Part shown: one piece after another, positions 27,801 through 43,020 of the stretch
How positions within the stretch are numbered: position 1 is the stretch's first letter
Layout of the letters: each line of letters starts with the position of its first letter
NCBI GenBank assembly: GCA_039621445.1
Contig: CP154954.1
Coordinates: forward strand, 19,206,642-19,270,641
Direction: 5' to 3'
Length of the DNA: 64,000 nucleotides
Origin: Euglena gracilis
Taxonomy: Eukaryota
Position numbers and translations under genes: made by a program
Notes under the pieces: model-generated
Seen by the model: only the letters and a program-made list of their open reading frames with translations
Databases searched by the model: none
What the model was told of the DNA's origin: nothing

Positions 27801-30800
27801 CAACCTTTCAAAAATTCCTGTTATGATAATACTACCGTATATATTGTCTTAGAAGCTGCTATTAATAGAGATATTATCCTCGTATCATCCATAAATTACA
27901 TATATGATTATAAATATTTAAAATTTAAAAATTCATAATACTATGTTAAATTAAAATATTAGTTTGTTTGGAATAATAATTATAACTATAACTATAACTA
28001 TAATTATAATATATTATATAATTATAATTATAATTATAATTATAATTATAATTATAATTATAACTATAACTATAATTGTAATTATAATTATAAACTATAA
28101 TTATAATATTAATTGCAATTATAAATAATTATAACTAAATTATATTATATTATATAATATACAATATGTGAATATATTATATGCTATATTTTTTTAATTT
28201 AATTTATGTCATTATAATTATAACTATAACTATAACTATAACTATAACTATGACTATAACTATAACTATAACAATATAATCTAATTATAAGTATAATTGT
28301 CATTGCAATTATAACTAAAAGACATAAATTAAATTAAAATATATTATAATCCACATAAACGACAGAACGAAATCTGACTAAGAGGGCAAATAATGTATGC
28401 AGATTGAGAAGAGAGAGGAGAACATTCTTACAGGAGAGGATAGAGGAGAGGAGATAGAGATGACTAGAGAGGAGGAGAGGAGAATATTAGAGATCGAGGA
28501 TATTGAGGAGAGGATTAGATATTAATATATCTTCTCTATCTCTTCTTCTCTATTATCTTCTGAGTCTTCTCTTCTCTCTCTAGATTTTCCTCTTCTTTCT
28601 CTTCTTTCTTTCTTTCTCTTCTCTATATTTTATTCTTTCTTATATTTATCTATTCTTAGTATCTTTCTTTATATATTATTATATTATATTCTTCTCTCTT
28701 CTCTCTCTCTCTCTTCTATTCTCTTCTCTTCTATTCTTTATTATTTATATTATTTATTCTTCTTGTTATCTTATATATATTAGGTTATATTATATTATAC
28801 CTACCCCCCCCCCCAGGAAACTGTCACCTGAAAGGTTGGCCAGTACCGGGGACCCTAACAACTTCCCATACTTAAAGGTTGGCTGGTACCAGGGACACTG
28901 ACAGTTTCCCTGGCTGGACCCTGACAGTTTTTCGGGTAGGGCATTTCAAGGGAAAGTCAATGAAAAATGACCCTGACAGGTTGGCCAGTGCTGGGGACCC
29001 TGACAACTTCCTATACTGACAGGTTGGCCGGTTCCGGGGACCCTGACAGTTTCCCGGGTGGGACCCTGACAGGTTCTCGGGCATGACAGTTTCCCGGGGG
29101 GGGGGTATTATACTACATTATATATTATATTTTTTATATTAATTATATTGTATTATATATATATATTATATTATATATTATATCATATTATATTATATTA
29201 TATTATATTATATTATATATCTATTATAATTATATATATTATATATATTATAAGATTAGATTGATGTATTGTATTGTATTTTGTATTGTATCTCTTGTCT
29301 TATATTTCTATTCTATTATGTCTTATTTTATCTTTTCTTATCTTCTCTTTCTATCTTATTTCTCTTCTATTCTATTCTATATTCTCTTCTATTCTCTTCT
29401 CTTTCTCTTCTCTTTATTTCTTTCTCTTCTCTTCTTCTCTTCTCTTTCTTCTCTTCTATTCTCTTTCTTTCCTTCTTCTTCTCTCTCTTCTCTTCTCTTC
29501 TTTCTTCTCTTCTCTTCTCTTTCTCTTCTTTCTTTCTTTCTTCTATCTCTTTCTCTTCTTTCCTCTTCTTCTCTTCTTTCTTTATATTATATTTCTCTTT
29601 CTCTCTTTATATCTCTTCTATTCTATCTCTTCTATCTTTATATTATATTCTCTTCTCTTTCTTTATATTTTTCTCTTATATTCTGTTATTTCTTTTATCT
29701 CTTATATTTTATATTATTATCTTATATTTCTCTTATATTATATTTCTCTTCTTATATATATTATATTATCTTGTTCTGTTCTGTTATGTTAGATTATATT
29801 CTGTTGTTAGTTATGTTAGATTATTCTCTATTCTTATTCTCTTCTATTCTATTATATCTTTATTCTCTTATCTTCTATTATATTATATTATATTGTATTA
29901 TATTATATTATCTCTATGTATTTTATATATCTATTTATTGTGTTATATTTGTCTTGTATTATATTATATCTTCTTCTTATATCTATATTGTATGTATTCT
30001 TATTGTTGTATTGTATTCTATCCCCTATTATATTCTCTGTATCTTGTATTGTATGTCTTGTCTTGTGTTGTATTGTATTGTCTTGTCTTGTGTATTGTAT
30101 ATTGTCTTGTCTTGTATGTTGTTGTTTTTGTTGTTGTATTTATTATATTATATTATATATATTCTATTATTATTATATTATTCTATAGTATATTATATCT
30201 CTTATATTATATTATATTATATTATCTTCTCTTTCTCTTTCTCTTCTATTACATATAATATATCTCTCTATATGTATATGTAATTTATGTAATATATATG
30301 TTGTATATGTTACATCATGTGTTATTTAACATAATTGTATTCTAATACATTATTAAGATTGTAATATAACATAATACTTGTAATGTTATAATTACAATTA
30401 AATATTATAATTAAATATTATATTAAATACTATAAATACTATAAATATATAAATGTTTGTCTCTTTATAATTCTTGGGCTGTTTTTTCTTGCGGCCTATG
30501 TTAAAACAGGTGCAACACATTCTGTCACCAAAAGACAGTCGGTCACCAAAACAAAGACGCCTGGGGGGTCCTATTTTGGGGGGGCTTACTCCAAACAAGA
30601 AAAAAAACCATGGAGGGGTGTCCAGGCTCCTGTCTGCCTTCCTCGATGCACATCAGCTGCAGCTGCTCCGTGTTGCCACACCAGCCGGCGGTGCCGCTCA
30701 GCGCGGCATACATCTCCGCCGGGTCCTTCAGGGCGACCCGCTGCCCCGCCAGCAACGACCCCGCGCTCCGGTCGGCCGATGGTTTGCCGCCCTCCCCCTC

Positions 30801-33800: not shown

Positions 33801-35915
33801 GCCTTAGGAGCGCTCCATATGCCCGCATATAACGTTTTTCCTCTCCCCACCAGGCCACCTGCTTGTGTACCCAACCTTTTCGAATACACACCAACAATCC
33901 GTCCCCTTGTTCCTCCGCATGACGTTTCGGTCTCCACAGTCAAGGTCAGATGGCACACTGGCAACGAGGAGTGCAGCAGTTGTATCGAATCATACATCAA
34001 CAGCCAAAATTTGTTGCGGCAAACTTGTTGGATTTTTCCTTCACAGGCCGCGTTCTCCGACATTGCTCTAAGTCAGCGCAAAGGCACATTGACCTATTAC
34101 TGTCCCTGGGAAAAAAATAAAAACCAGAAAAAATAACAACCCAAGCCGTTTGAGTTATTATTTTTCGGTTTTGTTTTTCCATTTTTTTCCCCAGTGCAAG
34201 GCCCCGCCTGGTCATGGCTCTTTGGATACTTCTCGGCGCAAACACACAATGACCAAATAATCCCATTCTCCATGGGGTGTGCAATGCATTATACACCTGC
34301 TTGTCTTCCCGGTCCAATTGGCCAGTGGTGTGCATAGGGTGCACCAAAATTTGCCAAAGCCCCCGTAACTCTGCCTCTGCAAAGTCGGAGGTCTTAGGTA
34401 CCCAAAGCCAGGAATATATGCGGCCCAGGTGCTTTTATCCAGCGTTTGCACCGCCCTTTCACAGGGTATCTTCTTGGGCCCAAATGTTCAGAGGTGTCCA
34501 GCATCCCCCCCAGCATGGGCAAAATTGTCATGGCACCATCAGGTAGGAAAAGAGCTCAGTACTACACAAAACCTGGAAAGGGGGGGGCAAGGAGGGTATA
34601 AGCAAAGGGGGGCAAGGGGGAAAGCGGGGTTAATGGAGTTAAGGGGTCCCCACTTCGTTCCATGCCTTCTTTGTGGGTCATCAAAGAATAATAAATCACC
34701 AATTGCTCGATTCTGAGGGGAAAAAATATTGGGGAGATGAAATGGTTTTGTGTGCTTCCTTGTCTCCTGGAAAGTAGTACCCGCCCCCCCCCCCCCTTGT
34801 CCAACGACCGGGTTCCTGCAACCCCCGACCAGGGGGGGGGGTCGTACACCCCGCCCAACCTGCAACCCCCGACCGGGGGGTGGTCGGTATATAGGGATGG
34901 TCGGTGGACAAGGGGGGGGGGGGCGGGTAAGGAGTTGGACAGTTTGCGCGGAAGAATCAGGCATGGGCCCAATCGGAGCAGTTTCTTTTTCCTTCGCGCG
35001 GTGGCAGAGCATGCTTTTCAAAACGTCCCCGCCTGTGCCACTGGACATGAACTGCCCCTCCTCCCGGGAGCCGTTCCGGGAGAACACCAAGCCCACGCTG
35101 CCGGCAAGCCCCACCTCCCCCAGGTAGTAGTCGAGGGGCAGGGCAGCGAGGGAGGAAACATGCCCCTCCCTTGCAAGCCCCAACCAACCGGGGGGATCAT
35201 ATCCACCCCCTTGCCTGTGACCCCCATAAACAGGGGTTGTCGATGGGCAAAGGCATCCGTGTAGCCGAAATATCCCCCGCCCCCTGAGACCAAGCAAATT
35301 ATCGGCAACGTTGATTGGAAAATACGCGTGAGCATCAGATGGGTGGATGGATACCATATGGAGATATGGATATGTGGATATGTGTATTTCCAGATATATG
35401 GATACATGTATATTTGGATATATGGATACGTGGAATATGGATATATGCCATATGGAGATATGCCATTCACATTCACAGGGGCATCTGGACTCAGAAGAAA
35501 TTCTCACCACTGGCCTGGTTGCCGCACCCAGGCAGCAGCTGCCGATCGTCCGTGCCAGAGATTTGCTGGGAGGGCAAATGATCCACCACACCATTTGTTT
35601 CAACCACCCCAGCCCGGGAAACTGTCACCGGACCCCTCAGAGGTCCTTCTGACCGACTTTCTATCGTGACATGTGAATAAGTGCAGTGACAGCGTTATGT
35701 GGGGGGGTAACAAAAAAGAACTGGACGCTTTGCAAAGCCTTCGGGCCACCAAGCAAAGGCCTGGCTCCTGATGTCCAGCACAACACCGACCGCGAAGGGG
35801 CGGTCCAGGTTCACCGCCAGGACCTGCAGGCGAATGGAGTGCCGGCCGTTGGCCATGAACGTTTGCTTGGTGATCGTCGTGCTATTTGTCGACCTGACAC
35901 GGGGGCAGGCACCGG

Positions 35916-36006
<91 letters not shown>

Positions 36007-37831
36007 GCGGGTACCGCTTGTCGCTACCGGGTTGTACCGCTGTGTGCGGAAAGAGAGAGACACGCGGGAAACCGCGGCCACCCCACAACGGGTGGAACAA
36101 AAGTCCCGGCCTTCCTTCCGGGCAACTAGCGCTTGCGAGCCCTTCGAGGCCAGGCGCATGGGACTGAAGCGCTTCCCCACACAGCCCAAGACGGCTAGGG
36201 GCTCGGAGTCCGGGGTGAGCCGACGCCGCCACCGCCCACGGCGAAAAGAATATGGGCTCCCGCCAGCTGACGCGGTTTACAAACATCAGCTAGGCCACCC
36301 CACGCAGCAACCGAGGTGGTGCTTCTCGGCCTGCAAGGACTCGAGCGCAAAGTCCCGCCCGCACAGCCTCCAGTGCAAGTCGGCACAGAGGAAAGAGCCA
36401 CGTGTGGGTGAAGCCCGTTACCCTCCTGGTGAGTCGCGGGTCGGGCTCCCCATACCTTGCTTGGGGTCGAAGCAAGTGGCTCTATGCGGGCTGTAGCTCC
36501 GGGAAGGCTGGCCCATCTCTGGGTGAAGGAGGCGGGCTGACGGGGTGCCAGGACCCCAATCGGCGCCGGCCGTGGACCAGAGTATCCCAGAGTGGTGACC
36601 ACCTTCACGCCAAGGAGTGGGGCGAGTGGCCCCCGGGGTCCCCGCTCCTGGCAACCGGAGTTCCTGGGCCGTTCCTCGGGTGACGGCAGCACCCGAGGGC
36701 CATGCAACACGCGGAGCCGCTCTCCAGGTGGGTGCCCACGGGGCTTTATCTCGCCTGCCTGGATGGAGCCGTGGGTGGCCCTGAGGGTCCGCATACCCTT
36801 GGGGTCCATGACTCGCCCACCCGCGGAACATGAGTGCCCCGTCACCAGGCGGTCTGCCCCCACCAGCCGGGCGTCGGGGGCATCGACAAGGAAGGCCCGG
36901 CTGGATCCGAAACCGCCTGGCTCTTTTACCGCTGTGTGCGGAAAGAGAGAGACACGCGGGAAACCGCGGCCACCCCACAACGGGTGGAACAAAAGTCCCG
37001 GCCTTCCTTCCGGGCAACTAGCGCTTGCGAGCCCTTCGAGGCCAGGCGCATGGGACTGAAGCGCTTCCCCACACAGCCCAAGACGGCTAGGGGCTCGGAG
37101 TCCGGGGTGAGCCGACGCCGCCACCGCCCACGGCGAAAAGAATATGGGCTCCCGCCAGCTGACGCGGTTTACAAACATCAGCTAGGCCACCCCACGCAGC
37201 AACCGAGGTGGTGCTTCTCGGCCTGCAAGGACTCGAGCGCAAAGTCCCGCCCGCACAGCCTCCAGTGCAAGTCGGCACAGAGGAAAGAGCCACGTGTGGG
37301 TGAAGCCCGTTACCCTCCTGGTGAGTCGCGGGTCGGGCTCCCCATACCTTGCTTGGGGTCGAAGCAAGTGGCTCTATGCGGGCTGTAGCTCCGGGAAGGC
37401 TGGCCCATCTCTGGGTGAAGGAGGCGGGCTGACGGGGTGCCAGGACCCCAATCGGCGCCGGCCGTGGACCAGAGTATCCCAGAGTGGTGACCACCTTCAC
37501 GCCAAGGAGTGGGGCGAGTGGCCCCCGGGGTCCCCGCTCCTGGCAACCGGAGTTCCTGGGCCGTTCCTCGGGTGACGGCAGCACCCGAGGGCCATGCAAC
37601 ACGCGGAGCCGCTCTCCAGGTGGGTGCCCACGGGGCTTTATCTCGCCTGCCTGGATGGAGCCGTGGGTGGCCCTGAGGGTCCGCATACCCTTGGGGTCCA
37701 TGACTCGCCCACCCGCGGAACATGAGTGCCCCGTCACCAGGCGGTCTGCCCCCACCAGCCGGGCGTCGGGGGCATCGACAAGGAAGGCCCGGCTGGATCC
37801 GAAACCGCCTGGCTCTTTTACCGCTGTGTGC

Positions 37832-37867
<36 letters not shown>

Positions 37868-40800
37868 GTCCCGGAGGGTGCCCCGTAGGTAGTGGACCAT
37901 TTTTCCGTCCCGCGCTGCCTTGTTTTTGGGGCCGGTTTTTTTCAGCCCCCCCCCCTCCCCCACCCCCGGGAGGGTGACGCAGAGCTCGTTTGTAACGGTC
38001 TGCACCACACAGAAAAGAGCGGTCGGGGACGAGGGTTGGCAGGGTCGTCACCCCTGACGATGCCCCACCTGCCAGCCTGGGGCGAAACCGCAACACAGAC
38101 TGACAACACACGCGCCCACACCGACTGACAACACACTTCCCCCACAAGCACACACTCTCGGGTCGGCAAGGAGTTCCCCCCAAGGAGTTCCCCCAGCAAC
38201 ACCGATCAGAAGAGAGAGAGAGAGAGAGAGCAACGAGGAGGACGCGGAGGACGGGGAGGACGAGGTCGTGGACGAGGCGACGGAGCCCAAGATCGACACG
38301 GCCATGGAGATCCCCGAAACCCGCGTGCCGGGCACGGAACTTGCCAGCCGTGCCCGTCATGCGGGTACCAGAACGAGGTGTACCACGCCGACGGGGCCCT
38401 GGGGGGTGGGGGGCTCGCCGGCGGTGGCATCCCCGGGCCCCCGGGCCCTGGCGCGGGGTCCGGGGGTGGCGTGAAAGGCGTGCGGAGCCCATGGGGGGAG
38501 CGCCGCCCCCCCAGCACGCACGCACGCACGGGGACCGCCACACACCCACCAGCAGGCAAGGGAGGGGGGAGGGGGAAGGGGCAGCCCAGCGCGCCAGACA
38601 GACGGGCAGCCACCGGAGGACCGGAGGCAAAGGGGAGGGGGAAAGGGAAGGGGCAGCCCAGTGCGCCAGACAGACGGGCAGCCACCGGGGGACAGGAGGC
38701 CAAGGGAGGGGGGAGGGGGAAAGGGAAAGGCAAGGGAAACCCACGTGGTAAAAGAGAGAGCGACGCGGGCAACCGCGGCCACCCTACAACGGGTGGAGGG
38801 AGAGTGACGGTGAGCGTCGCGCGGCACACGCCAGCCCGCGACGACAGGCCGCTCCCATACCCAGTCCACGGGAAGCACGCGAGGCAGGTGGAGAGGAGCA
38901 CGGGAAGGCAGGCGTGGACGTGGAGGTCATGGGAGGACTGGCACGTGAACGCCGTGCAACGGCGTTCCTGGCGCAAGAGCCCGATTCGGCGACTGCTGGA
39001 GCTCCGGCACGCTGAAGCACAAGCCAACGGAGACCGGGCCAATTACTTCTCCCCGGAGGCAGTGACCACCTGGCACGGGATGATCTACGGGGCGTACCAT
39101 TTCCCTACAGGGAAGTGGTACGTGGGCCAGACAGTCAACACCATCCGCCAGCGGGCACGAGAGCACTGGTACGCACGAAAGTCGGCGCGGGACTTCCTGC
39201 ACCTGGCGCTGGCAGACGACCCGGACCCGATGACCTGGCTGGCCCTGCCACTGGAGATCATCCCCAAGGAGCTGTGGCGATGTCCAGAGGCAGACCGACA
39301 AGCAGGGTGGCGGAAGAAAGGCTCTCCAGGGGTACCTGCCGATCACTGGCAGGGCGTGTCCCGGCACGCCGTCAATCGGGACCCCAACAAAACCCACCAG
39401 CACCATGACACAAAAAATCGCAGGCATGCCAGGCAATGACGGCCTGCCCGGCGCAGAGCCTCTGCCCCGGGTGGCAGGCGGGGCGCCAGCCTAAGAACCC
39501 GCAACCGATCTGGGGCGGATCTCCAGGGGTACCTGCCAATCATTGGCAGGGCGTGGCCCGACATGCCGTCAAGCGGGACGAAGGAGCAGAAGAACCGTGC
39601 CCCAGAAGCAGAAGCCAAGACCAGCACGACTGGAAGAAAGGGGCACGGATCGGGGAAGCAAAGAACCCCGGACCACCCCAAAGAGGGTACCAACAGCCCA
39701 ACCCAAAAGGGGGGGCCCAGCGAGGAGGACAACAAACAGGAAAAGGGCAGACACAGCCCAGGAAAGGAGGCAAGGGTGGCAAAGGAAACGTCACCCCACA
39801 AGGAAGCCGGCAGGGCCAACCCCAAGGAGAGGGCTGGCAAACAGCACAAAGCACCGGCCGAAAACGCCTCCAAAAGCGCCTCCAAGGGCTCCAACGAGCG
39901 CTGCAAGAAATGCAGCAAGAGCTCGACCAATGGCGGCGAGCCTCTACCAATCAGTCAAGAGGAGGGGGACGCCCCAAACAGCCGCAGCACCAGGCCGGCC
40001 CACACCGGGGCGGGGTTTACGCCGGGCAGTGAACCGGGGGTGACGCCGCCAAGGATCCCGCCCCCGGGGAGCCCGGGCGGGCCTGAGGACAGCGAGGGGG
40101 ACGCCCCGAGCCACGGACTGGCCCACACCGTGACGGGGTTTACGTCGGGCTGTGAACTGGGGGTGACGCCGCCAAGGATCTCAGCCCCAGGGAGCCCGGG
40201 CGGGTCCGTGATCGTGCTGCCAGGACCGGCCTCAGAGCCGAGGGGGGACGCCCCAAGCGACAGGCTGGCCCACACCGGAGCGGGGTTTACGCTGGGCGGT
40301 GAACCGGGGGTGACGCCGCCAAGGATCTCGCCCCCGGGGAGCCCGGGCGGGCCTGAGAGTTGCCAGCCCAAGGCCATGGAGACGGAGACAGACGCCCTCG
40401 AGGGGGTTGCAGCGCAGCCAAGCACCGCCTCCCAATCCCCCAGCGCCCCAACGGCCCCCACAGCCTCCCAAGGCCCCCCTCTCTCCAACCCGGACTCCGC
40501 CTCCCCAACCCCATGCCTCCCCCCACCCACCCGTGAGGTCCTCCAGGAGCGGGTCGTCATCGTCGAGAGGCAGGTCCCCGTTCCCGTGCGGGAGCCTGTC
40601 TTCGTGGATCGGGTCATCGAGCGGGTCGTCCCGGTCCCCGTGCAAGTCCCCGTGGAGGTCCGGGTCCCCATGCCCGTCCCCGTCCCCGTGGAGGTCCGGG
40701 TCCCCATCCCCATCTACCTCCCTCCCTCCGCGCCACAAGCCCCCTCCATCATGCAGAATGTGCATGTCAACACACTCACCATCGGCCCCTCCTCCTCCTC

Positions 40801-42077
40801 GTCTTCCTTGGCCCTCCTCCAAGGTCTCCCCATTCCCGCCATCGAGGCCCCCAACCGCCTCCTCCTCACCGCTCCCCCGCCACCACCCAGCGACACCACC
40901 GACGACGACACCTCTTCCCAAGGCCCCACGAAGAAGAGGAAGTTCACTTCGTTGAGTGAGTGGCCTGCCGAGTGGCGAGCCAAGTACGAAGAGTGGAAGG
41001 CGGTGCTGAAGGACCCACGACAAGCAGGACGAGGACAAACCATGTACGAATCATGGGACCCGGACCTGCAGAACCAGGTCTGGGCCTCGTGCGGCCCCCA
41101 GCGGCGGAGCATCATCCAAGAATGGCAAGAAGCCGCAGCAGTCCAGAACGTCGAGCGCCCCGCGGACCTCGAGCGCCAGACGCATGACTGGCATGAAGGT
41201 GCCAGGATCGGGGAGGCCGACCACCCCGGTCCAAGGCGCCACCCCCACGGCCCCCACCAGGGCCACCAACCCTCCGGGAGCCACGTCCCCGGAGCGAGAC
41301 CGAGCCACGTCCGGGCGGGTGGCAGGCAGCGTGGTGCCTGTGCCCCGCCAACCCCGTCCGCAGGGGAGCAAGCGAAGCGGGATTCGCCCCGGCCCCAAGC
41401 CCCTTGGCGACCCAACAGGGAAGCGGCCCGTGGGCGCCGCCCTGGGGATTCTTTTTCTTCAGCAGCCATGAGATTTTCCAGACCCTCTCGCCCTGGGAGT
41501 GCGCAGGGCAACCCACCCCGAGGAGAAGAAAGAGACCGAAGAGACGAAGGTGTCGCATGGACACCGGTGCAAAGCCGGCGGGGGGCAGCACTGCACAAGG
41601 AGATCAAGAGAATGGCGGACACCATCTCCGCCCTGAGCGCGGAGCTGAAGAAGCTACAAGAAAAATGCCAAGCTCAACGCCACTTTCGGGGGGAGTCGGA
41701 GCCCCCAACCACATCGAGACCACCGCGGAGGGGAGAGAGAGAGAGAGAGGGAGGCAAGGGCCGGCCCCCCTCCGATCCCCTCTCATCCCAACCCGTGGGA
41801 TCCCCTGCGAGGCCATCGTCGCGGCGGACGGCGGCGGCAGCGGCGGCAGCAGGAGACGACGACCAGCACAGACGCGGAGGCGGCGACATCGCAGGTGTGC
41901 CACCCCCGGCCTGCCGGAGCTGGTATCTCCGGCCCTCCAGTTCGGGCCGCACCGGCTGGAGGTGGGCGTGCAACCCGTGCGAGGCCTCCCCCCTCTGCGG
42001 CACCCCCCCACCTCCCTCCCCATCCCCTCCCATCCCCACCCCCACCCACACCCAGAATACCCCGTCCATACCAATCA

Positions 42078-42135
<58 letters not shown>

Positions 42136-43020
42136 TCGGAACGAGTTATTTGCCGAAGGACCAGGCTTCTATTTAACAACCACGGGGGAGGGGGTGCCTT
42201 CTGCTGTGTGGGACCTGCCCAAAAGAAGCTGTTTCTGAAATCATACAAAAACAATGCACAAACCTGTATGGAATGGCTAACCCGAACTTAGATCCTAACC
42301 CGAACCCATACATAAAAAAAAAGCATCAGCGCAAAAATAGGCGGCATCGGAGTAGGTCACAGAAGAGGAACCCAACCACTGCGTTCACTACTGGACCCCG
42401 GGGGGGGGGGGTGGCAACAGACGCCACGTTCCCCTCGGATCTCACCTGTCATGAACAAATCAAACCCTGTGTCCTGGAGATCTTTCAACCTTGATACGGA
42501 TGAAACGTGAAATGACACAGCAAATTGCACGTTTCCCGGTGCGAAAATCGCGTACCACAAACAATCCTATGTGAAAGAGTGGATCCCACCTCATGCAATA
42601 TGCATCTGAAGTCGGGCCCGATATCCCCCTCCGAGCCTGGCCAGTACGCGACGGTATCAGCATTGGCGCAGTCCACGCTCTTCAGGGTGTCTTTGAAATT
42701 CCACTTCCCCCGGAACGGCTTCCCGTCCTCCAATGAGTCCTGGAGGACCCGCTCCAAACGGTCGGCCATCGTCCAGGGGTGTGGTGTGAGGAGCACAGAA
42801 CCCTGCGTGAGGGGAACGAGATAAATGGGAGGGCTGCCCTGTGTTTCTGTGCCAACACATTTGCCCTGGCCCAGCCCACCAATGCAAGCAACGATGACAC
42901 CCATTCGGCGTAAAAGAAGCTTGCTCCCTTTGAGGGTGGAGGGGTAACAGCCTTATTTGGTCAGTGTGCCCAACATCTGAATAATAGCTCGGCACTCTCT
43001 GAAACAGGCACCCATCACCA
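1..43020 (-). CDS. Gene B (multi-exon, 3'-partial, start uncertain): giant multidomain protein SPRY-like / Mib-repeat-like / Zn finger / SPRY-like / 2x(Mib-repeat-like + MIB/HERC2) / SAM / ADP-ribosyltransferase
   Basis: About 30 short minus-strand coding segments in a coherent domain order. The C-terminal segments are collinear and homologous with gene A exons (e.g. [33 protein letters not shown] vs [33 protein letters not shown]). It cannot be excluded that the N-terminal half is a separate gene. Confidence 0.7.
265..2950 (-). CDS. Gene B exons, N-terminal part of the ART domain and preceding helical region
   Basis: Segments ~2855-2950 (GTNFVDLIHTVNYSQDDIFLKLW), ~2110-2200 (TALVPEYGELRGLGPPDTDGFAIRM), ~1588-1730 (..[27 protein letters not shown]), ~745-800 ([19 protein letters not shown]) and ~265-305. 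The first four match gene A segments clearly; the last match is weak. LY..W.Y..CN.A.R resembles the helical region preceding ARTC catalytic domains. Confidence 0.8.
880..1115. repeat. (TACA)n/(GACA)n microsatellite, intronic
   Basis: Directly visible tandem TACA and GACA units. Confidence 0.95.
3002..3140. mobile_element. MITE-like element with poly-C/poly-G terminal inverted repeats (TACCTC(n)TTGTCT ... AGACAAG(n)TA)
   Basis: Inverted termini with TA at both ends and no coding capacity. Confidence 0.6.
4865..7375 (-). CDS. Gene B SAM-like domain exons and following linker
   Basis: ~7345-7375 (PQADTFSQA), 6422-~6505 (YNSLEALSLATKEDLVRHGVLEPQAV), ~4865-4980 (LVRRLQDQ...RHRESPTF). The SAM pattern 'L..Lt.EDL...Gv' is present, and the segments are homologous to gene A 58555-60420. 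Confidence 0.7.
5385..5606. mobile_element. MITE family 1 copy (C(n)GGGAAACTGTCA ... TTTCCCG(n)) inside an AT-rich tract
   Basis: Terminal inverted repeats and internal GGGACCCTGACAG subrepeats; homologous to copies at 28802, 50347 and 53282. Confidence 0.85.
8560..11970 (-). CDS. Gene B second Mib-repeat-like + MIB/HERC2 module and Pro-rich linker
   Basis: ~11895-11970 (ITGYRVRMRNAEQIKDAV), ~11420-11590 (LASSMGTLKSYD...LVEFSGSEAYWLPRSCFDV), ~10975-11050 ([17 protein letters not shown]), ~10300-10445 ([24 protein letters not shown], the MIB/HERC2 signature), ~8560-8720 (YRQDDL + PAQP-rich linker). Confidence 0.8.
12457..12838. repeat. (GATA)n/(GA)n/(TA)n microsatellite cluster
   Basis: Direct inspection. 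Confidence 0.9.
13045..13470. repeat. Dispersed GC-run repeat (GGGGTCCGGACCCC...CCACCTAAAC...TGTACGCCCTCCTTATATC); related copy near 16945-17060
   Basis: Internally duplicated and shared with 16945-17060. Confidence 0.6.
16440..18830 (-). CDS. Gene B first Mib-repeat-like + MIB/HERC2 module
   Basis: ~18715-18830 (IAGHRILMRRAETIQEVM), ~18310-18490 (LASKQGTVKRYN...FVEFDSCGSHWVPRSCFNV), ~17905-17975 ([17 protein letters not shown]), 16641-~16730 joined to ~16440-16512 ([39 protein letters not shown]). Confidence 0.8.
16513..16640 (-). other. 128-nt nonconventional (non GT-AG) intron with a 13-bp terminal stem
   Basis: Minus strand GACCACACCGTTGCT ... AGCAACGGTGTGGCCGT. Removal restores the MIB/HERC2 sequence seen uninterrupted in the other two copies. 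Confidence 0.85.
21075..23960 (-). CDS. Gene B second SPRY-like beta domain exons
   Basis: HSTLAIKGTFSATGRNSLK, LEGLDPCGPLALGVYP, YVGGEGLPDSIGLV, GDTLEVAVEDGMVTFAVNGQPHG, LRFGVSL. These follow the SPRY-like motif order and parallel the 33-36 kb segments. Confidence 0.6.
25190..26130 (-). CDS. Gene B Cys/His zinc finger (ZZ/C1-like), two exons
   Basis: CPQGHAIQHSTSNSSFTCNVCKAELQASPMYGCR (~25985-26100) + CHYAACEACHRM (~25195-25235). Confidence 0.7.
25353..25764. mobile_element. MITE family 2 (TAC(n)TATGTCCAACGACC ... GGTCGTTGGACATAG(n)TA)
   Basis: Long terminal inverted repeats with TA flanks; related pieces near 11300-11359, 14520-14592, 18492-18550 and 34778-34929. Confidence 0.8.
26750..30900 (-). 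CDS. Gene B Mib-repeat (SH3_15-like) exons
   Basis: ~30640-30760 (GQRVALKDPAEMYAALSGTAGW), ~27640-27710 (WHDGQEPVASKCGEIRGFDNSDG), ~26750-26820 (YRVAVQSKLIWLPSTSFEL); these resemble the Mind-bomb repeat pattern. Confidence 0.55.
27880..30460. repeat. Long AT-rich/CT-rich low-complexity tract of degenerate microsatellites, intronic
   Basis: ATTATA, GA, CT and TA-type repeats with high degeneracy; may partly be noisy consensus. Confidence 0.9.
28802..29107. mobile_element. MITE family 1 copy
   Basis: TAC(n)AGGAAACTGTCA ... TGACAGTTTCCCG(n)TA with internal subrepeats. Confidence 0.85.
33140..35900 (-). CDS. Gene B first SPRY-like beta domain exons
   Basis: ~35760-35900 (STTITKQTFMANGRHSIRLQVLAVNLDRPFAVGVV), ~35030-35150 (LPLDYYLGEVGLAGSVGLVF), ~33140-33280 (RAGSIIAMVVAEGLLTVTVDGVEL). 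Confidence 0.6.
34778..34929. mobile_element. MITE related to family 2 (TACCCGC(n)TTGTCCA ... TGGACAAG(n)CGGGTA)
   Basis: Clear inverted termini. Confidence 0.75.
36845..36920 (+). ncRNA. Type III hammerhead ribozyme, variant core (UCGACAA), copy 1
   Basis: Stem III CCAGGCGGU/ACCGCCUGG; GUC site (cut after 36854); stem I UGCCCCC/GGGGGCA; core UCGACAA; stem II GGA/UCC; GAAA; 10-bp loop-loop pairing CCAGCCGGGC/GCCCGGCUGG. Confidence 0.8.
37737..37812 (+). ncRNA. Type III hammerhead ribozyme, variant core, copy 2
   Basis: Same sequence as copy 1; predicted cut after 37746. Confidence 0.8.
38019..38091 (+). ncRNA. Type III hammerhead ribozyme, canonical core
   Basis: GCGGUC (cut after 38024); stem I GGGGACGA/UCGUC-A-CCC; CUGACGA at 38054-38060 plus an extra U; stem II GCCCCA/UGGGGC; GAAACCGC; loop-loop pairing GGUUGGCAGG/CCUGCCAGCC. 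Confidence 0.9.
38320..39439 (+). CDS. Element ORF with Gly/Lys-rich region and GIY-YIG endonuclease (C-terminally truncated)
   Basis: GMIYGAYHFPTGKWYVGQTVNTIRQRAREH at ~39077-39165. The expected downstream catalytic Glu helix and G.N motif are absent after ~39320. Confidence 0.75.
39436..42080 (+). CDS. Element downstream ORF region (one frame change near 39960) with two 2A-like motifs, two coiled coils, a triplicated repeat and a VPV-rich segment
   Basis: ORFs 39436..40032 and 39563..42238 of the supplied track; motifs HDWKKGARIGEAKNPGP and HDWHEGARIGEADHPGP. Confidence 0.55.
42221..43020 (-). CDS. Probable 5'-most exons of gene B (unknown domain)
   Basis: Coding-like VPLTQGSVLLTPHPWTMADRLERVLQDSLEDGKPFRGKWNFKDTLKSVDCANADTVAYW. 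The exon ending at 42221 joins in frame to the exon at 35900 across a consensus stem intron. Confidence 0.5.

Follow-up and report, generated by a model that had tools for sequence, protein, structure and literature searches.

A tandem 892-bp non-coding element carrying a hammerhead-like motif with a variant core, associated with Penelope-like elements in Euglena gracilis

Layout of the 892-bp tandem and its head-to-tail junction

We analysed a stretch of 64,000 nucleotides from Euglena gracilis (contig CP154954.1, positions 19,206,642 to 19,270,641; hereafter the window). It contains a tandem of two 892-bp non-coding units, each of which carries a type III hammerhead-like motif, named motif A, whose core reads UCGACAA. 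The array lies within a GC-rich island (66-69% GC, about 36000-42300), the window as a whole having about 48% GC. This island is bounded and partitioned by (GA)43, (AG)15, a GA run at 38208-38231 and (AG)26. The following features were delineated (positions are those of the window).

35918..36003, no strand: (GA)43 microsatellite, left of the insertion and its presumed target (TRF: period 2, 43 copies, 100%)
36004..36034, + strand: 31-bp junction 'tail' (direct reading; interpreted by analogy with the tails of Penelope-like elements)
36035..36926, + strand: unit 1, 892-bp non-coding element, 100% identical to unit 2
36927..37818, + strand: unit 2, 892-bp non-coding element, 100% identical to unit 1
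37819..37844, + strand: 26-nt start of a third unit, which stops within the element's own GA run and merges into (AG)15
37836..37865, no strand: (AG)15, separating the 892-bp tandem from the next insertion (TRF)
37866-38231: 366-bp fragment carrying hammerhead C and terminating in the GA run 38208-38231
42081..42132, no strand: (AG)26 microsatellite, closing the GC-rich island (repeat scan)

Comparison of positions 36035-36952 with positions 36927-37844 gave 918 nt of identity at an offset of 892, with 0 mismatches. When the unit was searched against the window with BLAST, two full copies at 100% and the 26-nt third start were recovered, that is 2.03 copies. Both results confirm the spacing of exactly 892 nt given in the preliminary description of this DNA. 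Six overlapping open reading frames (ORFs) of the unit were searched and no meaningful Pfam family was found in them. A conotoxin match (E 0.063) falls on the translated GA repeat and was discarded as noise.

The left junction is made of 8 nt repeating the start of the element after its GA run (CACGCGGG), followed by 23 nt of filler. By direct reading, the filler looks like the small hairpin that precedes the GA run. By analogy, this 31-bp stretch may be the counterpart of the 30-40 bp tails found at Penelope-like insertions (Craig 2021, PMC8557442; parts of this paper and of the others cited below are drawn upon here). More generally, successive insertions in the island are each bordered by GA microsatellites, which, together with the tail at 36004-36034, fits the microsatellite bias and the tails described by Craig 2021.

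Words of the unit were present in 20 of the 24 sequencing runs listed, and at least half of them in 16 of the 24. These runs represent 11 studies, and five of them are recorded as RNA. Four RNA-library runs were compared with the unit as contigs, which carry no information on ends, strand or circles. In run X6, a leaf-litter metatranscriptome, a 922-nt contig with 0 differences and a depth of 33.3 covers 36856-37300 and then 36409-36885. Because 922 nt correspond to 892 nt plus a 30-nt overlap, this contig closes on itself. The joint at which the sequence goes back by 892 was observed in X6 (side 255) and in X17 (side 32), two runs from different studies. Therefore, the head-to-tail junction is observed independently of the present assembly. 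The remaining cover is partial and uninterpretable, X18 containing only 36898-37157, X19 only 36906-37123 and X17 only parts of the unit. The start of the X6 contig at 36856, two bases past the cut predicted for motif A, was not counted, the start of a closed contig being arbitrary.

These contigs bear on whether the tandem could be an artefact of assembly, the genome having one unit only. The 100% identity of the two copies would be expected in such a case, and structures of this type are reported to cause assembly problems (Craig 2021, PMC8557442). However, the junction was found in contigs of two independent RNA-library runs, the flanks of the array are unique and different from each other, the array includes the 26-nt start of a third unit, and multicopy head-to-tail insertion is typical of this class of elements (Craig 2021). 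We consider an artefact very improbable.

Hammerhead-like motif A and related hammerheads with a canonical core

Each unit contains one copy of motif A.

36845..36920, + strand: hammerhead-like motif A1, type III (direct reading and descriptor scans), predicted cut 36854/36855
37737..37812, + strand: hammerhead-like motif A2, identical to A1, predicted cut 37746/37747

Motif A folds into a three-way junction in which stem III is open, stems I and II are closed by hairpins and every pair is standard, as in type III hammerheads. Stem III (CCAGGCGGU/ACCGCCUGG) has 9 bp, stem I (UGCCCCC/GGGGGCA) has 7 bp and stem II (GGA/UCC) has 3 bp. The cleavage triplet is GUC, with C17 at 36854 and 37746. In A1, the core UCGACAA occupies 36883-36889 and the GAAA box 36909-36912; besides this box and the NUH triplet, the A15.1-U16.1 pair is present as U36853-A36912. 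Loops I and II are complementary over 10 bp (CCAGCCGGGC/GCCCGGCUGG). This architecture had been described exactly from inspection of the sequence, and independent scans recovered it.

The significance of the fold was evaluated with a relaxed hammerhead descriptor allowing up to 3 core mismatches and minimal stems. Applied to the 64-kb window, it gave 25 matches. The two copies of motif A came top with a stem sum of 19, the runner-up having 16. When the 6.08-kb GC-rich island was dinucleotide-shuffled 300 times, no shuffle attained a stem sum of 19 and 4 attained at least 16. The 10-bp loop pairing was equalled in 13 of 20000 shuffles of the loops. Two weaker descriptor matches, TTGACTG on the minus strand (near + strand 39215) and TTGAAAA, have short stems and were regarded as due to chance.

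Two hammerheads related to motif A have a canonical core. One of them, hammerhead C, belongs to the 366-bp fragment that follows the tandem.

38019-38091, + strand: hammerhead C, type III, canonical core (direct reading; second scanner; weak match to Rfam Hammerhead_3)

Hammerhead C has a GUC triplet with the cut placed after 38024, and a CUGACGA box with one extra U (38061) following A9. Its stem I contains one bulged A. Loop-loop complementarity extends over 11 bp, a value equalled in 25 of 20000 loop shuffles. In a 131-nt search, Rfam Hammerhead_3 aligned to it with 16.8 bits (E 0.26), well short of the gathering score; Rfam did not detect it in a 4.6-kb search, nor is it mentioned in the preliminary description. 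The GA run at 38208 follows it at a distance of 116 nt. The other relative lies on a metagenome contig, L001, at positions 1134-1211. The Rfam Hammerhead_3 match there has 28.2 bits, with an E-value of 0.0091 when 7.8 kb are searched and of 0.00058 when 501 nt are searched; the score is lower than the gathering score of 48.5. GUC and CUGACGA are present, and stem II is GCCCC/GGGGC, the same as in hammerhead C. The 7-bp loop-loop pairing was equalled in 375 of 20000 loop shuffles, and the hammerhead stands 166 nt upstream of a GA run followed by the conserved module described below. Alignment with MAFFT of the L001 hammerhead-to-module region to window positions 38270-38800 was uninformative upstream of the module. 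Some parts of 38340-38480 (GCCCGUC, CGACGG) look like the L001 hammerhead; this stretch was dropped, as no consistent hammerhead could be built from it.

Motif A, hammerhead C and the L001 hammerhead are built alike: all are of type III with a GUC site and long loop-loop complementarity, and a GA run follows each of them 22-166 nt downstream. Motif A and hammerhead C also have GCGGUC...GAAACCGC in common in stem III. The loop-loop pairs themselves, of 10, 11 and 7 bp respectively, differ in sequence across the three hammerheads. This covariation indicates that the complementarity was maintained through compensatory substitutions. The family is thus characterised by a monomeric type III hammerhead that has a long predicted loop-loop helix and is placed a short distance before a GA run. 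Because hammerhead C and L001 carry CUGACGA, UCGACAA is derived from the canonical core.

We also asked how far a GC-rich repeat could fold into something hammerhead-like by accident. GC-rich sequence is indeed rich in stems, the relaxed descriptor was satisfied 25 times in the window, and the minimum-energy z-score of the 86-nt piece bearing motif A is merely -2.44. Yet the shuffled controls reproduced the stem sum in none of the cases and the loop pairing only rarely, and in two relatives a canonical hammerhead of this unusual design occupies the corresponding position. Chance resemblance is extremely unlikely, and motif A is a true hammerhead derivative.

Conserved module and the Penelope-like partner family

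The GA run of the unit belongs to a module that recurs in the neighbouring retroelement.

36942..36987, + strand: conserved module, a GA run and two hairpins; also at 36050-36095, and 91% alike at 38751-38797
38751..42080, + strand: element B, internally deleted copy of the autonomous partner family, starting with the module

The hairpins that follow the GA run are CGCGG-GAAA-CCGCG and CCACCC-CACAAC-GGGTGG, the module measuring 45-47 nt. Its pattern matched three times in the window, for 0 matches expected. The module is common to the 892-bp unit, element B and L001. Judging from this module and from the hammerhead design found in element B, fragment C and L001, the 892-bp unit is kin to the repeat region of a Penelope-like element.

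Four further X6 contigs (84-1597 nt, depth 2.8-51) share only the module with the unit, with 3-5 differences and other flanks; one of them corresponds to element B. In these four contigs, a small hairpin-like CCNNNGUGG stretch is seen just ahead of the GA run. The presence of several module-bearing contigs shows that several family members are represented in the X6 library.

Element B encodes a GIY-YIG nuclease at 39080-39319, identical at 100% to residues 1-80 of protein P0002. After the equivalent of residue 80, the sequence jumps to residue 1552 onward. Because the residues in between are skipped, element B has no reverse transcriptase (RT). In Pfam, the GIY-YIG match of its ORF is weak (E 0.029, 15.1 bits versus a cut-off of 22.6). 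Six loci were obtained when metagenome contigs were scanned with the module pattern. Only L001 is a clear relative among them, with 76% identity over 603 nt; its 600-aa ORF comprises GIY-YIG, a CPC motif and the beginning of an RT. In L003 and L004 the similarity hardly extends past the module pattern (33-47 nt), and for L002, L005 and L006 BLAST returned nothing at E<=1e-3. Viral contigs were scanned with the P0002 protein and with the module pattern, and nothing was found.

Longer protein relatives of the partner are P0001 to P0008. P0002 (1954 aa) contains GIY-YIG at 1-110, CPC at 281-283 and RVT_1 at 637-712, the latter above the Pfam cut-off. In P0001, RVT_1 is just under the cut-off (28.2 bits versus 29.6). 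In both proteins, RVT_1 is downstream of GIY-YIG. An alignment of nine proteins showed that the GIY-YIG residues and the CxC cysteines (C281 and C283) are invariant in 9/9. Atlas neighbours of the partner carry GIY-YIG and RVT_1, which is taken as a lead only. A PDB sequence search with P0002 returned a single meaningless match. The P0002 label, eukprot:EG_transcript_109, may denote a euglenid transcriptome.

The order GIY-YIG, CxC, RT is that of the Naiad/Chlamys elements, which also show a microsatellite bias, 30-40 bp tails and pseudo-LTRs (LTR, long terminal repeat), and whose non-autonomous forms, MRC1 among them, are inserted in several copies arranged head to tail (Craig 2021, PMC8557442). 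By its domain order, the partner family would be of the Naiad/Chlamys type.

Some side observations concern the same region. A single reading frame, 38378-42238 (+), is interrupted solely by a TGA at 39437-39439. Past GIY-YIG, this putative coding frame consists of low-complexity, repeat-rich sequence that matches the C-terminal part of P0002. A 63-nt conserved element is found at 39320-39382 and 39517-39579 (89% identity), on either side of the in-frame TGA, and also at 131-194 of L001. It forms a hairpin CCUGCC/GGCAGG and then an apparent H-type pseudoknot, GGCGUG-loop-CACGCC, in which the loop pairs downstream. The loop/downstream pair is UCCCG/CGGGA in the window versus CUCGG/CCGAG in L001, a change that looks compensatory. 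Finally, a 72-bp tandem repeat of 2.5 copies (38548-38725, 81-89% identity) is located in the retroelement 3′ region, after the GA run at 38208 and ahead of the module at 38751.

The relationship with a DNA retroelement also bears on the idea that the unit is a retroviroid, that is the integrated copy of an autonomous viroid-like RNA replicon rather than a transposon passenger. Its size is within the viroid-like range, the closed 892-nt contig comes from a leaf-litter RNA-library run and parts of the unit occur in plant and soil runs. In contrast, the ribozyme-like motif is found on one polarity only, the 45-nt module and the hammerhead design are common to the adjacent retroelement family, and the insertion resembles that family in its microsatellite, its tail and its GA run. 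A retroviroid origin thus appears highly improbable, and kinship with the Penelope-like family is retained in what follows.

Variant core, retrozyme-like reading and other features of the window

The 892-bp unit is probably a non-coding, non-autonomous, retrozyme-like passenger of the Penelope-like family with an N-terminal GIY-YIG, inserted in (GA)n and carrying a hammerhead derived from the canonical family cores. The retrozyme-like context proposed in the preliminary description holds in this respect, as the unit is non-coding, linked to Penelope-like elements and set within a microsatellite, and its junction is seen in RNA-library contigs of two studies.

As compared to CUGANGA, the core of motif A has the changes C3U, U4C and G8A, whereas G5, A6 and A9 are kept. 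C3U and G8A are mutually compensatory, the 3-8 pair being restored as U3-A8. This pair is a natural covariation active in vitro (Perreault 2011, PMC3088659) and occurs naturally in the Penelope-element hammerheads of Schistosoma, of which about 1,300 motifs are reported (Cervera and De la Pena 2014, PMC4209133). A viroid hammerhead with U4C still supported infectivity (Perreault 2011). The earlier proposal of a natural variant core thus stands for the UCGACAA reading and for the 3-8 compensation, and falls for the novelty of U3-A8. The U3/C4/A8 triple looks new as a combination, U3-A8 and U4C each having natural precedent, and it is not mentioned in the parts of Perreault 2011 drawn upon here. 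From its sequence, this variant core may self-cleave in vivo, the arguments on either side being evenly balanced.

Several points weigh against the retrozyme-like reading, and in particular against an active motif A. The core departs from CUGANGA at three of the six specified positions, U4C means the loss of a U-turn contact, and stem II is short, with 3 bp. In the nested minimum free energy structure calculated with ViennaRNA (-43.0 kcal/mol), stem III is kept and the 10-bp loop pairing is used as an ordinary helix instead of stems I and II, whereas the hammerhead fold without the pseudoknot amounts to -29.9 kcal/mol. The loop I/loop II duplex alone contributes -22.5 kcal/mol. The 10-bp kissing helix may be sterically awkward beside stems I and II, or may represent a competing fold. 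No Rfam family reached its gathering score anywhere in the window. Rfam reported no hammerhead at E<=10 in 35800-38000 (2.2 kb) or in 36825-36940 (116 nt), and motif A, below the RF00008 gathering threshold, gave no alignment whatsoever in the 116-nt search. Therefore, consensus searches overlook motif A, as had been anticipated. On the side of the family, the comparison of hammerheads covers only three distinct motifs, no 892-type relative was found in the metagenome contigs scanned with the module pattern, and the partner is assigned by domain order (nuclease-CxC-RT) and motifs rather than by a tree, which is a weak point. As to the RNA libraries, DNA can occur in them, so that a contig match is no proof of transcription, and the X6 and X17 joints fit a circle or a tandem equally.

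The UCGACAA core could be a weakened or dead derivative, since the relatives keep the canonical core. In the latter case, motif A would descend from the family hammerhead and no longer cleave, the tandem would be a usual multicopy head-to-tail insertion, and the closed contig would be a collapsed tandem transcript or DNA. The preliminary description had held that the motif would be decayed if other copies carried CUGANGA. CUGACGA was indeed found in hammerhead C and L001, related elements which are, however, not copies of the 892-bp unit. The three changes in the core, the lack of an Rfam score and the contigs, showing neither circles nor ends, all agree with loss of cleavage. In addition, U4C considerably lowers activity in vitro in a viroid hammerhead (Perreault 2011, PMC3088659), and canonical hammerheads are absent from Naiad and most Chlamys elements, which propagate well all the same (Craig 2021, PMC8557442). 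Against this, none of the 19 stem pairs is lost and the 10-bp complementarity of the loops is preserved, the changes being confined to the core. Two of the three changes compensate each other, and U3-A8 cores are active and natural (Perreault 2011; Cervera and De la Pena 2014). Moreover, unit 1 and unit 2 do not differ at any position, and runs from several studies contain the unit without change, which suggests that the element was recently active in its present form. On balance, we regard a dead relic as unlikely.

The opposite and more complete view is that UCGACAA is a selected, active triple-variant core locked by the long loop helix, and that the 892-nt RNA is a true circular retrozyme RNA of a euglenid-like protist, copied into GA microsatellites by GA-primed rolling-circle reverse transcription. 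We put forward this joint proposal tentatively. For the retrozyme-like passenger considered probable above, we propose a cycle in which the tandem would be transcribed and the hammerhead would cut after C36854 and C37746 to give an 892-nt RNA, which would be ligated to a circle. The nuclease of the partner would nick the (GA)n target, and the resulting (TC)n 3′ end would pair with the GAGAGAGA run of the RNA and prime reverse transcription. Reverse transcription proceeding 2.03 times round a circular or multimeric template would leave a perfect tandem with its right end in the GA run. In the array, the right end is located inside the unit's own GA run, merging with (AG)15, and the left end consists of (GA)43, 8 nt of post-GA-run sequence and 23 nt of filler. 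Such a mechanism would also account for the 100% identity of the two units.

Two kinds of retrozymes have been distinguished, plant LTR retrozymes with a type III hammerhead and animal tandem retrozymes with a type I hammerhead, for the latter, an origin as non-autonomous derivatives of Penelope-like elements is assumed (Li, Clavereau and Pollet 2026, preprint). Like the animal non-LTR retrozymes, the 892-bp unit forms tandem non-coding units each with a hammerhead and is kin to a Penelope-like element; a circular RNA and rolling-circle reverse transcription are proposed in both cases. Unlike them, it has a type III and not a type I hammerhead, a partner with an N-terminal nuclease, a length of 892 nt, a UCGACAA core and a protist-like host. 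The plant LTR retrozymes resemble the unit by their type III hammerhead, their non-coding nature and their size, 892 nt being within 600-1000 nt. In contrast to them, the whole unit repeats at an offset of 892 without an LTR-internal-LTR layout, its flanks are GA microsatellites, and its partner is Penelope-like instead of Gypsy. A 4-bp target duplication, a primer-binding site and a polypurine tract are not evident, the last two without a dedicated search.

Other comparisons concern the ribozyme and the partner. The hammerheads of Penelope-like elements are, like motif A, located in a repeat region, and U3-A8 is natural in Schistosoma mansoni; however, they are minimal type I motifs thought to act as dimers, whereas motif A is a monomeric type III motif with long stems, a 10-bp loop pairing and C4 (Cervera and De la Pena 2014, PMC4209133). 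The pseudoknot-stabilised hammerheads and core variants of Perreault 2011 (PMC3088659) show, as is predicted for motif A, a Watson-Crick lock between loops I and II, and they share with it U3-A8 and U4C, the latter being tolerated in vivo in a viroid. Their pseudoknots have about 4-6 bp, as compared to 10-11 bp in motif A and hammerhead C. As for Naiad/Chlamys elements, the domain order, microsatellite bias, tails and head-to-tail non-autonomous copies are as in the present locus. Their targets are (CA)n, (C)n and (TA)n, whereas (GA)n is the presumed target here, in a family with type III hammerheads; canonical hammerheads are described only in two Chlamys subclades, in Chara and in a spike moss (Craig 2021, PMC8557442).

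The locus thus crosses retrozyme categories, with a tandem layout, an N-terminal-nuclease Penelope-like partner and a type III hammerhead, apparently in a protist. If the proposal is true, a type III hammerhead would here be seen for the first time in a tandem (non-LTR type) retrozyme, and such a retrozyme would for the first time be tied to N-terminal-nuclease Penelope-like elements. A search by title and abstract, supplements aside, for Euglena hammerhead ribozymes and for Penelope-like elements of Euglena gracilis retrieved no relevant paper. Two canonical cores and one U3/C4/A8 core in a single family provide a natural series for studying the rescue of a weakened core by tertiary locking. 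Similarly, the perfect 2.03-copy array, ending in its own GA run, is a clear trace of the kind that rolling-circle or template-jumping insertion, as proposed for these elements, would leave.

Overall, the window appears poor in genes and rich in repeats, and CpG is depleted (observed/expected 0.4-0.9). Pfam searches of 14 of the largest ORFs lying outside the 892-bp unit returned no family, the weak GIY-YIG match (E 0.029) of the retroelement ORF being the sole exception. An AT-rich patch at 28000-30500 contrasts sharply with the remainder, with 26% GC, a CpG observed/expected ratio of 0.32 and short tandem repeats (TTGTA, TATTA and others).

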